A stretch of DNA of 13,110 nt, taken from positions 1 to 13,110 of the IMG/VR virus record IMGVR_UViG_2684622670_000001. One strand, given 5' to 3'. Positions 8,037-12,009 of the stretch are shown piece after piece. How positions within the stretch are numbered: position 1 is the stretch's first letter; each line of letters begins with the position of its first letter. The notes below the pieces were generated by a model that saw only the letters and a program-made list of their open reading frames with translations, had not been told where the DNA came from and did no database searches. The translations under genes were made by a program, and so were the position numbers. Source of the DNA: a virus. Lineage: Duplodnaviria > Heunggongvirae > Uroviricota > Caudoviricetes.

Positions 8037-8240
8037 TCATTTTTTCCCTTTCTGTTTACCTGCCCACTGTTTTGCAATGTACAGGCAGTCATCGAAAATT
8101 CGGCCTTTTCTGCTGGCTTGTGAACAACGGCGGTAATGTTCCACCGCCATGTCAGCGCCAGTCATAGCCGCGTTTTGGTCGTATCCAAGCTTTATTAACT
8201 CGGTTGTTACATTTTTATGTATGAAATCAATCGGAGTCAT
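8037..8240 (-). CDS. Hypothetical small protein, 67 aa (accessory cassette, second gene)
   Basis: ORF with ATG at 8240 overlapping the upstream gene stop (ATGA), suggesting translational coupling. No family recognised. Confidence 0.5.
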   Translation of the reverse strand: MTPIDFIHKNVTTELIKLGYDQNAAMTGADMAVEHYRRCSQASRKGRIFDDCLYIAKQWAGKQKGKK

Positions 8241-8833
8241 GCTGGTTTACCATCAGGGAAATCCCCCATGTCACATAGCTTGAACTGAATCAGATCCTTC
8301 ACAAGCTGCTCAGCCTTTTTAATGGCCCTCTTCTCTTTCTTCCGACGAGTCATGAGAGCGCTACCTGCTTGACCGTGCATTTCAAATGAGAACTTCTCAG
8401 CAGCCGCGACACGGTTTTGCATTTCGCTGATTGCCATATCGGTCAGGCCAGAGAAATCGAGGAGGTTAATGTCCTTCCCACCCTCAAGCTCAGTCATGTG
8501 GTCATACACCTGCGCCTGAAGCTCATAGCTGTAGCTCATTGCCATGAGGCAAGCTTCACGCTTGGGAAAATTGCAAATATCCCTCTCCACAACACCACCT
8601 GTTCCGTTGATATAGGTATCAGTTGCAAAAAATTTTGCAGCTGCATCCCCGAGAACCTTGGGTACTTTCTTCATGAAACTGCGGTGTTCGAGTTTGCGAT
8701 ATTTCTTACAGGGGAACGCAAGCCCCTCCGCCTCCGCTTTGGATTTCCGATCAGCATTAATGTAATCCACCATCTCAAGACTGCTCATGGTCGGGTATTC
8801 GCCAGAAGGAAGAACGGTTAATGATTTGTTCAT
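8237..8833 (-). CDS. Putative Rha-family-like phage regulatory protein, 198 aa (accessory cassette, first gene)
   Basis: ORF with ATG at 8833 and AAGGAA ~8 nt upstream. N-terminal region ('TMSSLEMVDYIN ... KLEHRSFMKKVPKVL ... REACLMAMSYSYELQAQVYDHM') loosely fits the Phage_pRha pattern as I recall it. C-terminal ~90 aa unassigned. Confidence 0.45.
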   Translation of the reverse strand: MNKSLTVLPSGEYPTMSSLEMVDYINADRKSKAEAEGLAFPCKKYRKLEHRSFMKKVPKVLGDAAAKFFATDTYINGTGGVVERDICNFPKREACLMAMSYSYELQAQVYDHMTELEGGKDINLLDFSGLTDMAISEMQNRVAAAEKFSFEMHGQAGSALMTRRKKEKRAIKKAEQLVKDLIQFKLCDMGDFPDGKPA

Positions 8834-8978
8834 GTCGGTATTTCCTTTAGAAAGTTGAGCCTGTTCGCACAGAAAAGCCGTCCCCGAGAGGTCCTCACCT
8901 ATACGGCAGTTCTCAGGCTCAGCTTTCTGAAAGACTCGGGATTGTTACGCGCTGCGATACGCTGTGAAATTCAGATGT

Positions 8979-9003
8979 AAAAAAAGCCCCGCATCGCGAG
9001 GCT
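8979..9003 (-). terminator. Intrinsic terminator-like hairpin plus U7 downstream of Rz
   Basis: Minus strand reads AGCCUCGC-GAU-GCGGGGCU followed by UUUUUUU: an 8-bp stem (one G-U pair) with a run of seven U. Confidence 0.5.
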
Positions 9004-9034
9004 CATTAAATTGACTTTGTGATTTGCAAAAAAA

Positions 9035-9472: not shown

Positions 9473-9945
9473 ACCTCAATCTCTCTGACCGTTCCGCCTG
9501 CTTCTTTGAATTTTGCAATCAGGCTGTCAGCCTTATGCTCGAACTGACCATAACCAGCGCCCGGCAGTGAAGCCCAGATATTGCTGCAACGGTCAATTGC
9601 CTGACGAATATCACCGCGATCAATCATCGGTAAAGCGCCACGTTCTTTAATCTGTTGCAATGCCACAGCGTCCTGGCTTTTCGGAGAGAAGTCTTTCAGG
9701 CCAAGCTGCTTACGGTAGGCATCCCACCAACGGGAAAGAAGCTGGTAACGTCCGGCGGCTGTTGATTTGAGTTTGGGGTTTAGCGTGACAAGTTTGCGAG
9801 GGTGATCGGAGTAATCAGTGAATAGCTCTCCGCCAACAATGACGTCATAACCATGATTTCTGGTTTTCTGTCGTCCGTTATCAGTTCCCTCTGACCACGC
9901 CAGCATATCGAGGAACGCCTTACGTTGATTATTGATTTCCACCAT
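9469..9945 (-). CDS. R: Endolysin R (lambda-type lytic transglycosylase), 158 aa
   Basis: Protein '[39 protein letters not shown]...' matches lambda R as recalled. 17-nt overlap with S and ATGA overlap with Rz, as in lambda. Confidence 0.95.
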
Positions 9946-10252
9946 CTTCTACTCCGGCTTTTTTAGCAGCGAAGCGTTTGATAAGCGAACCAATCGAGTC
10001 AGTACCGATGTAGCCGATGAACACGCTCGTTATATAAGCGAGATTGCTACTTAGTCCGGCGAAGTCGAGAAGGTCACGAATGAACCAGGCGATAATGGCG
10101 CACATCGTTGCGTCGATTACTGTTTTTGTAAACGCACCGCCATTATATCTGCCGCGAAGGTACGCCATTGCAAACGCAAGGATTGCCCCGATGCCTTGTT
10201 CCTTTGCCGCGAGAATGGCGGCTAACAGGTCATGTTTTTCTGGCATCTTCAT
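9929..10252 (-). CDS. S: Holin S (class I; S107 antiholin / S105 holin dual-start), 107 aa
   Basis: Protein '[39 protein letters not shown]...' matches lambda S as recalled, including the Met1-Lys2-Met3 dual-start motif. Confidence 0.95.
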
Positions 10253-10578
10253 GTCTTACCCCCGATAAGGGGATTTGCTCTATTTAATTAGGAATAAGGT
10301 CGGTTACTGATAGAACAAATCCAGGCTACTGTGTTTAGTAATCAGATTTGTTCGTGACCGATATGCACGGGCAAAACGGCAGGAGGTTGTTAGCGCAACC
10401 TCTTGCCACCCGCTTTCACGAAGTCAGCCATTGCGCTGGTTTTCTTTTATGCAAAGCACACCGCACCGTAGCCACAGCGGATAAGGTGATTGTTTTGTAT
10501 GCTTTGTGTTTGGTTGATTATGTATTTCAGAAATGTTGTGCTAATGTTGTCATTCATATAAAGAAGGATTAAACACAA

Positions 10579-10758
10579 ATGAATGACTTTGACACAAGAA
10601 GGCTCCACGCAATCCATATGTTACTTCAAGAGATCTCTGATAAAACCTTGCAAATAGCCATGTCAACGCACTCTGATGAAAACAAGAAAAGTCTTATCAC
10701 ACCACTAATGAAAAGACATGCGGATCTAGTCGCTGAATTTCAGGAACTATTGAAATAA
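10579..10758 (+). CDS. Candidate small ORF (59 aa) on the opposite strand within the Q-S intergenic region
   Basis: ATG at 10579 preceded by AAGAAGGA (spacing ~10); 59 codons ending in TAA; lies in an AT-rich stretch that does not overlap any minus-strand gene. Just below the 60-aa cutoff of the supplied ORF track. No family recognised. Confidence 0.35.
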   Translation: MNDFDTRRLHAIHMLLQEISDKTLQIAMSTHSDENKKSLITPLMKRHADLVAEFQELLK

Positions 10759-10761
10759 TTA

Positions 10762-10789
10762 AATACCCACACAGAGATACGGGGGTATT
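10762..10789 (-). terminator. Hairpin (AAUACCC ... GGGUAUU) with U-rich 3' side on the minus strand; candidate tR'-like terminator of the late leader transcript
   Basis: 7-bp perfect inverted repeat with a 14-nt loop, followed on the minus strand by UAAUUAUUUC. It lies at the 3' end of the lambda-like 6S-leader segment and immediately after the stop of the plus-strand 59-aa ORF. Confidence 0.35.
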
Positions 10790-10949
10790 AGTTACCACAT
10801 TAGCAACTTTATTGCGTCAATATTTGCAAACCTCTCAGCCCGCGATGGTTGGAGTTCCAGACGATACGTCGAAGTGACCAACTAGGCGGAATCGGTAGTA
10901 AAGCGCCGCCTTTTTTCATCTCACTACCACAACGAGCGAATTAACCCAT

Positions 10950-11114
10950 CTATCCCATACTGGAGAATTCACCATGATATTTTATCCTGGCATTTTCCAT
11001 TGCCTTTCTAGCCTCCTCGATATCGTCAAAACACCCTACATGAATCCTCCATGTAAGAATTCCAGTATCTGGATTGTAATTAAAAAGTCTCAATGCATCT
11101 TCACGTTTTAACAT
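10950..11114 (-). pseudogene. Degraded HNH-AP2 homing endonuclease remnant (54-codon ORF)
   Basis: Translation 'MLKREDALRLFNYNPDTGILTWRIHVGCFDDIEEARKAMENARIKYHGEFSSMG' joins an HNH_3-type N-terminal motif ('LFNYNPDTGILTW') directly to an AP2-type C-terminal tail ('GCFDDIEEARKAMENARIKYHGEF'), with no catalytic core between them. Sits in an AT-rich insertion with a weak RBS. Confidence 0.45.
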
Positions 11115-11300
11115 AGGCGAACCACATAGATATTAGAGCCTGCTGACATAGAAATATCACCACGAGAGAAGTCGCCAAAAGCGATATTTCTCAGGCTCTA
11201 TTCCTATGTGCTCTCGAGTTTATGATGCGCATGTCAGTGCGCTTAGAACTTAAAGATGAGGTGGGTAAAAGCTGAAAGAATGTGAACGGATATAAATCTG

Positions 11301-11343
11301 CCATTCTTGGGTCAAATTTACCCAACTTTATTCAAATAGTCAA
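11301..11343 (-). promoter_or_regulatory. Late promoter pR' with qut/Q-binding region and promoter-proximal pause element
   Basis: Minus strand reads TTGACT (11343..11338), a 17-nt spacer, TAAATT (11320..11315), then TGACCCAAGAATGG. This closely matches the lambda pR' sequence as recalled (TTGACTTATTGAATAAAATTGGGTAAATTTGACTCAACGATGG). Located ~45 nt downstream of the Q stop. Confidence 0.75.
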
Positions 11344-11385
11344 TATTATGCCGTTAATATGTTGCCATCCGTGGCAATCATGCTG

Positions 11386-12009
11386 CTAACGTGTGACCGC
11401 GTTCAAAATGTTGTCTGCGATTGACTCTTCCTTGTGGCATTGCACCACCAGAGCGTCATACAGCGGCTTAACAGTGCGTGACCAGGTGGGTTGGGTAAGG
11501 TTTGGGATTAGCATCGTCACAGCGCGATATGCGGCGCTTGCTGGCATTCTTGAATAGCCGACACCTTTGCATCTTCCGCACTCTTTCTCAACAACTCTCC
11601 CCAATTGCTCTGTTTTTGATATATCAACCGCACGGCCTGTACCGTGGCAATCTCTGCATCTTGCGCCCGGCGTCGCGGCACTACGGCAATAATCCGCATA
11701 AGCGAATGTTGCGAGCACTTGCAGTACCTTTGCCTTAGTATTTCCTTCAAGCTTTGCCACACCACGGTATTTCCCCGATACCTTGTGTGCAAATTGCATC
11801 AGATAGTTGATAGCCTTTTGTTTGTCGTTCTGGTTGAGTTCATGCTTACCACAGAATGCAGCCATTCCGAATCCGGCTTGTGATTGCGCCATCCCCATAG
11901 CAGCCATCACATCAGTACCGGAAAGAGAGTCAGAAGCCGTAGCCCGTGGTGAGTCGCTCATCATCGGGCTTTTTGGCGAATGAAATTTAGCTACGCTTTC
12001 GAGTCTCAT
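11386..12009 (-). CDS. Q: Late gene antiterminator Q (lambda-type), 207 aa
   Basis: Protein 'MRLESVAKFHSPKSPMMSDSPRATASDSLSG ... CRDCHGTGRAVD ... CGRCKGVGYSR ... NILNAVTR' matches lambda Q as recalled, including the zinc-binding Cys motif. ATGA overlap with ninH. Confidence 0.95.
   Translation of the reverse strand: MRLESVAKFHSPKSPMMSDSPRATASDSLSGTDVMAAMGMAQSQAGFGMAAFCGKHELNQNDKQKAINYLMQFAHKVSGKYRGVAKLEGNTKAKVLQVLATFAYADYCRSAATPGARCRDCHGTGRAVDISKTEQLGRVVEKECGRCKGVGYSRMPASAAYRAVTMLIPNLTQPTWSRTVKPLYDALVVQCHKEESIADNILNAVTR

Follow-up and report, generated by a model that had tools for sequence, protein, structure and literature searches.

The stretch of DNA analysed here (13,110 nt, referred to below as the window) is part of a lambdoid prophage with its genes encoded on the minus strand, in the order Q, late leader, S-R-Rz and terminase. 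In full, the gene order consists of a ninH-like gene, RusA and related genes, the antiterminator gene Q, a spacer, the holin gene S, the endolysin gene, Rz, a gene of 198 aa, the terminases, and portal and head genes. The spacer between Q and holin S measures 1133 bp (11385..10253), and positions along it are also given as q coordinates, counted in phage orientation (q = 11386 minus the window coordinate). It contains the late promoter pR′, whose hexamers coincide with the pR′/qut annotation of the homologous stretch of phage HK630, a cassette with an open reading frame (ORF) of 54 codons, and a remaining part of the lambda-type late leader (Table 1). This last part corresponds to about +9 to +135 of the lambda 6S RNA, and restarts directly after the stop codon of the ORF. 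The following ∼400 bp (10822..10424) are unrelated to lambda and replace the lambda-type leader between the leader and the S-proximal region; they have no counterpart in the E. coli prophages with an intact cassette, which carry tRNA-Asn/tRNA-Thr genes there, and no tRNA genes were found in the window. A terminator-like hairpin (10783..10766, minus strand) lies near the position of lambda tR′, and an opposite-strand ORF of 59 codons (10579..10758) is gene-called in several assemblies and has no Pfam match above threshold. Further downstream, the slot of the 198-aa gene (8833..8237, minus strand), which stands behind a second copy of the RNA leader described below, is occupied by Rha or KilA-N in related prophages; Pfam searches with this gene and with the next one (67 aa, 8240..8037, minus strand) gave no match.

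Table 1. Features of the Q-holin S spacer and its surroundings in the window.
Feature	Position	Strand	Evidence
Late antiterminator Q, 207 aa (upstream neighbour)	11386..12009	-	ORF list; Pfam Antiterm on the identical gene in locus L007
Late promoter pR′ (TTGACT, 17 nt, TAAATT), holds the Q-binding region	11315..11343	-	Consensus scan; alignment to lambda
Initial transcribed sequence AAGAATGG (empty sites: AACGATGG)	11301..11308	-	sigma70 '-10-like' pause element
Whole cassette, 350 bp (677 bp in intact alleles)	10951..11300 (q86-435)	-	Comparison with empty L001 (lambda) and L003 (E. coli 13C1065T) and with occupied L002
RNA leader, copy 1	11112..11242	-	Alignment A2, RNAalifold, pair counts; model R1, alignment A4
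HNH-AP2 endonuclease gene remnant, 54 codons + stop	10950..11114	-	ORF list; alignment to intact alleles; Pfam
Imperfect 16-bp hairpin made by the deletion, junction in 3-nt loop	11028..11063	-	Consensus scan; -11 kcal/mol, z=-2.4
Deletion junction TGG/AGG (W22-R23)	11047..11049	-	Window ACATGGAGGATTCATG versus parent ACATGGAAGAATCC...GGTAAAAGGATTCATG
Remaining lambda-type late leader	10823..10950	-	q436-563 versus lambda 81-207, 96% identity
Holin S, 107 aa (first late gene downstream)	9929..10252	-	ORF list; Phage_holin_3_1
RNA leader, copy 2 (diverged)	8831..8962	-	nhmmer E=2.8e-9; covariance model 60.5 bits, E=3e-12

In lambda and in the prophage of E. coli 13C1065T the leader reads AACGATGG/GTTAATTC without interruption (the slash marks the site of the cassette), and many other prophages are likewise empty. 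The empty lambda-type leader can also be given as AACGATGG/GTTAATTCGC, with …TTGACCCAACGATGGGTTAATTCGCTCG… as the fragment around the site, and the uninterrupted leader of lambda and 13C1065T as ...TAAATTTGAC(T or C)CAACGATGG/GTTAATTCGCTCG.... Since lambda and numerous E. coli prophages have an empty site, the whole cassette represents an insertion in the late leader. Occupied alleles (the window and E. coli JNE131328, L002) and empty ones (13C1065T and lambda) are 96-98% identical in the flanks on both sides, and thus differ by the presence or absence of the cassette at one site. The borders are ambiguous by 4-5 nt, with ATGG repeated at both ends; the cassette ends with the stop codon of the ORF and consists of the gene and ∼186 nt of 5′ leader. 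When the Q-S spacer was compared by megablast to the phage collection, only the lambda-like flanks were matched (34% coverage). A group I intron was considered as the nature of the cassette and rejected: no border placement within the ATGG ambiguity gives both a 5′-exon U and a terminal G, no 3′ intron part follows the ORF, at whose stop codon the cassette stops, and no group I match in Rfam was obtained at E<=10 for the window or for the intact allele.

The position of the insertion within the late transcript can be given from the transcription start of pR′, which we take from lambda to lie at ∼11308, a placement consistent with initiation 7 nt past the -10 hexamer. Counted from there, the cassette begins at ∼+9, i.e., ∼8 nt past the start of pR′ transcription. 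This region sets up a sigma70-dependent pause at +16/+17 that is required for Q loading and in which a '-10-like' element has a role (PMC5001585). The insertion separates the sigma70 '-10-like' pause element from the +16/+17 pause site and destroys the GGG discriminator. In addition, the pause element reads AAGAAT in occupied alleles versus AACGAT in empty ones (AAGAATGGC versus AACGATGGG); the two substitutions were seen in occupied alleles only, and no empty site with AAGAAT was found in 5426 E. coli genomes. This change, right next to the left border, could reflect any of co-conversion, compensation, or a recombination joint with another type of leader.

The 54-codon ORF, confirmed in the ORF list at 11114..10950, starts with ATG and has the translation MLKREDALRLFNYNPDTGILTWRIHVGCFDDIEEARKAMENARIKYHGEFSSMG. 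An intact parent gene exists at the same site: in 16 of the 5426 complete E. coli genomes, a megablast search with the Q-proximal part of the spacer recovered 889 bp where the window has 563 bp, and the extra DNA is annotated as 'HNH endonuclease' in all 16. In E. coli JNE131328 this gene encodes WP_000919140.1 (163 aa) and lies between Q and tRNA-Asn/tRNA-Thr/holin. Pairwise BLAST aligned q1-344 to positions 1-344 of this allele and q338-563 to positions 665-889, an offset of exactly 327 bp. Nucleotides 1-66 and 67-165 of the remnant are 100% identical to nucleotides 1-66 and 394-492 of the intact 492-bp gene (L002 2772-3263), and the identity of these two stretches (66 and 99 nt) is far beyond chance. 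The window thus lacks 327 bp or 109 codons (residues 23-131) in frame, and its ORF consists of residues 1-22 joined to residues 132-163 of the 163-aa parent. At the junction, the parent reads ...ACA TGG AAG AAT CC... and ...GGT AAA AGG ATT CAT G..., versus ACA TGG AGG ATT CAT G in the window: codon 22 (W) now abuts codon 132 (R) of the parent, with a direct microhomology of only 1 nt (A). One identifiable lesion hence derives the ORF from an intact homolog at the orthologous site, as is characteristic of a pseudogene. The original prediction, made without database searches, had proposed that some 100 residues were missing through an in-frame internal deletion; this is borne out, and it is the comparison to full-length genes at the same locus that decides the matter. 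The deletion also brought together the arms of an inverted repeat, which form a hairpin with the junction in its loop (Table 1), followed by a short U run (UGUUUU) that gives it a terminator-like appearance. The two parental stretches have no comparable fold, and this hairpin is probably incidental.

In terms of protein domains, Pfam assigns residues 55-97 of the parent (DHINGDRSDNRIANLR..., 61.5 bits, cut-off 24.8) to HNH_3, a His-Me finger family (PF13392), and residues 108-157 to AP2 (PF00847; 33.6 bits, just over the cut-off of 33.3). The HNH_3 match lies wholly inside the deleted codons 23-131. Accordingly, the 54-aa peptide alone gave no HNH_3 match even at E<=10, and AP2 was hit at E=0.13 with 13.1 bits, below the gathering threshold of 33.3, and over profile positions 29-53 of 54 only. 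Two parts are left, a conserved segment from the N-terminus (LFNYNPDTGILTW) and, joined to it, the last AP2 strand and helix (RIHVGCFDDIEEARKAMENARIKYHGEF). The 22 N-terminal residues, initially taken for an HNH_3-type motif, turn out to lie outside the HNH_3 profile; they represent the conserved N-terminus of the HNH-AP2 family and can be aligned with homologs down to ∼35% identity (alignment A1). The real end of the AP2-type tail is KYHGEFSSMG and not exactly KYHGEF. The profile search suggested as a check of the original prediction thus gives no significant match of the peptide to HNH_3 or AP2, but rejecting the prediction for this reason would be wrong, because a peptide of 54 aa is too short for Pfam. 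Based on the domain matches of the parent, the deletion took the entire catalytic core along with half of AP2, namely its first 24 residues. In AP2/ERF structures, these 24 residues correspond to the DNA-contacting beta-strands. Judging from the residues that are left, the remnant cannot be a nuclease or cleave DNA and probably cannot bind it either, and nothing suggests a new function.

The same junction is present in a series of other loci (L004-L014), and the exact 54-aa product was found by protein look-up on 19 contigs with at least four different backbones. Among the carriers are three complete chromosomes (CP117600.1, CP043266.1, which is E. albertii RM9974, and CP117654.1), many independent drafts, and one IMG/VR contig, the one match in a scan of viral contigs. 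No match to the exact junction was obtained among genome contigs with one genome per species, and the deleted form is absent from all 5426 complete E. coli genomes. The modules neighboring the deleted allele vary between carriers (lambda-type Nu1/A terminase, Terminase_2/6N, Terminase_4/TerL, different nin regions). There are two haplotypes of the deleted allele, which differ at 3 of 563 nt, a divergence too low to test for selection; a single difference falls in the ORF (1 in 165 nt) and is synonymous. The identical junction in all contigs together with the several backbones points to a single recent deletion that would have moved between prophages by recombination. Two E. albertii-type prophages with the deleted allele (L004 and L006, 3304-3870) carry a different HNH_3 gene of 188 aa between ninE and ninG, which is likely another freestanding endonuclease insertion.

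Other lesions affect the same gene. Most of the 16 IMG/VR contigs with the cassette are intact, and two (L027, L036) have a 1-bp deletion that leads to a product of 46 aa. Another 1-bp deletion, with a product of 112 aa, occurs in read-set assemblies (L015, L018, L019); as some frameshift alleles stem from error-prone assemblies of this kind (the Q gene of L015 is fragmented) and may be sequencing errors, the 112-aa alleles are weak evidence of independent decay. Related prophages therefore display one site in four states (empty, intact, frameshifted, and internally deleted), as would be expected once a selfish endonuclease gene has passed through its invasion.

The parent is a member of a large family of proteins that are full length throughout: 3810 records match in the phage collection, the match spanning 80% or more of the query in 2894 cases (coverage of residues 2-163), and they commonly bear the annotation 'HNH homing endonuclease'. 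The best matches in this collection have 44-47% identity and no record is above 60%. The lineage of the parent itself was found only in prophage-derived sequences (bacterial assemblies, read-set assemblies, IMG/VR contigs), in each case right behind the late promoter. Among the entries of the protein database, 147 match the parent at E <= 1e-10, and no family of short proteins resembling the 54-aa form was found among these homologs; the original prediction would have failed had the ORF belonged to a conserved, intact family of small proteins, and none appears there. Freestanding phage homing endonucleases combining HNH_3 and AP2 (PF13392 + PF00847), for example in the Escherichia/Salmonella siphophages Bas77 and NTEC3 and in Xanthomonas phage Xop411, resemble the parent in their two-domain architecture, their length (∼160-170 aa), their conserved N-terminus, and their sequence (44-47% identity over 2-163), whereas the copy in the window, without residues 23-131, has lost the whole catalytic core. 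Among solved structures, plant AP2/ERF domains (e.g., WRI1, PDB 7wq5) align to residues 108-158 of the parent (E=0.0026), yet the remnant has only the last strand and the helix of this domain. I-HmuI of Bacillus phage SPO1 (PDB 1u3e), a structurally characterized HNH homing endonuclease, shows a weak and insignificant likeness (E=0.66) to residues 51-103, i.e., the HNH core; unlike the parent, it is intron-encoded and has no AP2 domain, and nothing of the matching region is left in the remnant.

We thus interpret the ORF, with a probability of roughly 90%, as the inactivated remnant of a 163-residue HNH-AP2 gene that suffered one 327-bp deletion within a presence/absence cassette of a lambda-type late leader. 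In the scenario that we propose, the intact protein would be a site-specific (homing-type) endonuclease cutting the empty leader, and the cassette would have spread by break repair after cutting. Once the gene was in place, the nuclease may have been unselected and would have decayed, by a deletion in this case and by 1-bp frameshifts elsewhere. The single deletion joining codon 22 to codon 132 removed the whole His-Me (HNH_3) core together with the first 24 AP2 residues, the reading frame being kept by chance. The cassette would persist in the leader, where it is transcribed from pR′ and presumably continues to interrupt the sequence that was once the target. The homing-endonuclease cycle that Goddard and Burt are said to have described in 1999 leads from invasion to fixation, degeneration, and loss. 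The coexistence of intact, frameshifted, internally deleted, and empty alleles at one site resembles this cycle; however, the model is framed for intron- or intein-encoded genes, whereas the gene studied here is freestanding in a non-coding leader and would be homing only by our reading. When the insertion was attributed earlier to a decayed freestanding homing endonuclease, the endonuclease remnant was rightly identified, while 'homing' is a label that we infer from the presence/absence polymorphism and the annotation of the family. The endonuclease gene is also not all that was inserted, as the 5′ half of the cassette holds a conserved structured RNA leader.

How the cassette reached its site bears on this label. 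It might instead be a resident cargo (moron-like) gene that was moved by ordinary homologous recombination between mosaic phages, the nuclease serving the phage or prophage, for instance by cutting competitors, in which case 'homing endonuclease' would be a mislabel. Diverged homologs with 86, 74, and 66% identity (L023, L020, and L021, respectively) indeed lie right after Q and ahead of the lysis genes, a shared position that follows Q genes of three types (207, 254, and 273 aa) and fits either a lineage targeting the late leader or a long-resident cargo gene. L020 and L021 have an initial transcribed sequence with homology to the left end of the cassette, so that the left 'border' might represent a joint made by recombination. 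Furthermore, the RNA leader is common to the unrelated cargo genes Rha, KilA-N, P22_AR_N, and Acb2, and in another prophage (L048, see below) an HNH-AP2 gene occupies the cargo slot between endolysin and spanin genes. Yet, the presence/absence polymorphism is sharp and the flanks are highly similar on both sides, the stop codon marks the end of the cassette, phage proteins that combine HNH_3 and AP2 generally carry the annotation 'homing endonuclease', and repeated inactivation speaks against a maintained function. We therefore find a cargo origin rather unlikely, and the ORF would be a deletion remnant under homing and cargo alike.

It seems considerably less probable still that the 54-residue product is itself a selected small protein, such as a truncated peptide that binds DNA or acts as a decoy. 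In its favor, the deletion preserved the frame, the ORF is open and protein-identical on the 19 contigs and across several prophage backbones, its sole substitution is synonymous, and the regulatory leader ahead of it is fully preserved. However, with one junction and a divergence of 3/563 nt the allele is too young for selection to show, and an in-frame outcome has a chance of 1 in 3. The absence of the catalytic core and of the first 24 AP2-match residues, the frameshifts in sister alleles, and the absence of any similar short-protein family among the homologs equally argue against such a role. The chance that the deletion is an assembly or sequencing artifact is negligible: the window does represent a single draft contig of 13 kb (BBVP01000037.1), but the occurrence of the same junction in the three complete chromosomes, the many independent drafts, and the IMG/VR contig refutes this. 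Decay of an HNH-AP2 endonuclease gene by a single deletion hence stands as our reading of the ORF.

The RNA leader in the 5′ half of the cassette comprises the 131 nt ahead of the ATG of the remnant. It is more conserved than the coding sequence, with 96, 88, and 80% identity versus 84, 73, and 69.5% in L023, L020, and L021, respectively. A second, diverged copy in the window follows the terminator after Rz (∼9004..8979) and directly precedes the 198-aa gene, and further copies were found in L002 (5316-5446), L005 (8148-8278), L039-L050, and phi80 (L052 ∼901-1056). According to pattern scans, the leader precedes unrelated genes in other prophages, some of which Pfam names P22_AR_N, Rha, and Acb2/Tad1, and searches with the profile and the covariance model revealed equivalents before Rha and KilA-N genes at other loci. 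Identified by BLAST, the type represented by copy 2 is the terminator-to-rha spacer of phi80, HK620, HK639, and 73 Stx2a-converting phages, and it is also found in phages of Salmonella, Klebsiella, Hafnia, and Providencia; in total, 220 of the 5426 E. coli genomes and 145 phage records were matched. The Xenorhabdus-type element had no blastn match in the phage collection.

Two loci illustrate the variety of genes behind this leader. In L048 (7899-8519, minus strand), the leader and a 163-aa HNH-AP2 gene lie between the endolysin and the Rz/Rz1 spanin genes; L048 is a Xenorhabdus/Photorhabdus-like prophage, and its sister phages have P22_AR_N or Rha in that slot. A prophage remnant of Xenorhabdus beddingii (L039, 1275-1514) encodes behind the leader an 80-aa protein with the Acb2/Tad1 hairpin domain (Pfam E=4e-14), Acb2/Tad1 being the anti-CBASS/anti-Thoeris sponge family; this gene suggests that the leader marks a slot for anti-defence cargo.

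The predicted fold of the leader consists of a short hairpin followed by an interrupted hairpin of ∼31 bp (19 + 12 bp, with a 7-nt bulge on the 3′ side). The ribosome-binding region and the ATG are covered by the base and flank on the 3′ side of this long hairpin, whose closing pairs include the Shine-Dalgarno GG, ∼9 nt before the ATG. Copy 1 folds with -50.1 kcal/mol (z=-5.2), its start codon being paired. In alignment A4 (24 distinct sequences), which was fitted to the model, 93.9% of the cells are paired, versus 82% in shuffles and 35-48% with slid partners; 25 of the 37 pairs changed on both sides, and values as high as those observed were not obtained in any of 500 shuffles. The restriction of G.U pairs to the sense strand speaks for an RNA and not for a DNA palindrome. 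Under this model, the leader is a structured RNA supported by covariation. A second pairing emerges from the 6-7 nt directly 5′ of the hairpin, for which six sequence versions show complementarity to the 3′ portion of the apical loop (CGAGAG/CTCTCG, CTGAGAG/CTCTCAG, CCATGAG/CTCATGG, CCCGAG/CTCGGG, CACAGAA/TTCTGTG, CACCGA/TCGGTG), with a chance of 0.003-0.075 per sequence. This pairing and the full hairpin cannot coexist, since one nucleotide would have to span ∼30 bp, and they would hence be alternative conformers.

A search with Rfam 15 gave no gathering-level match in the window, and relaxing the threshold to E<=10 yielded nothing but noise for both copies and for the intact allele. We found no description in the searchable literature of an RNA leader of rha or of an HNH gene in a lambdoid late leader, and no consensus match to a sigma70 promoter inside the leader element. 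An HDV-like ribozyme was also considered, given that the order of the strands (5′ flank, 5′ strand of the hairpin, inner hairpin, loop strand, 3′ strand of the hairpin) resembles P1-P2-P3-P1′-P2′. It was rejected, as the would-be cleavage site lacks a G.U, neither a suitable L3/P1.1 nor an Rfam match was found, and the inner 'P3' hairpin is unconserved in members of the copy-2 type.

A possible parallel is the leader of lambda N, a hairpin that occludes the ribosome-binding site (RBS) and is processed by RNase III. Both have a long, interrupted duplex (∼31 bp here) whose 3′ base overlaps the Shine-Dalgarno sequence of the next gene; in contrast to the lambda N leader, to which it has no sequence relation, the present leader belongs to no Rfam family and has a second covarying pairing that is incompatible with the full hairpin. 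Our best guess is that the leader controls the translation of cargo genes by RBS occlusion, which would be relieved by refolding or by RNase III-type processing. More tentatively, and with somewhat less than even confidence, we propose that the remnant has been preserved together with an undescribed class of cis-regulatory RNA (∼125-131 nt), a switch or processing site that would time the translation of cargo genes and would have been carried into the pR′ leader by the HNH cassette. Such an RNA would combine a small hairpin, the ∼31-bp hairpin occluding the RBS, and the mutually exclusive pairing of 5′ flank and apical loop, and would precede interchangeable cargo (HNH-AP2, Rha, KilA-N, P22_AR_N, the anti-CBASS Acb2) in late operons of lambdoid phages of enterobacteria, among them phi80, HK620, and the Stx2a phages. 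The HNH cassette would then have taken a copy of it to +9 of pR′, inside the region of sigma70 pausing and Q loading, and the late promoter would have to tolerate the insertion or compensate for it (AACGAT to AAGAAT, loss of the GGG discriminator).

The remnant itself is a case of ordinary gene decay, a new instance of a well-known kind, which automatic annotation will label as a 54-aa 'hypothetical protein'. Taken alone it matters little, but it provides a clean, mapped example of the decay of an endonuclease gene in place, with all four states of the site available. The occupied prophages constitute natural variants with which to test what Q loading at pR′ requires. Finally, the leader represents a widespread family of structured RNA, without a match in Rfam, that stands ahead of cargo and anti-defence genes, and it could explain the silencing or the timing of these genes in late transcripts.
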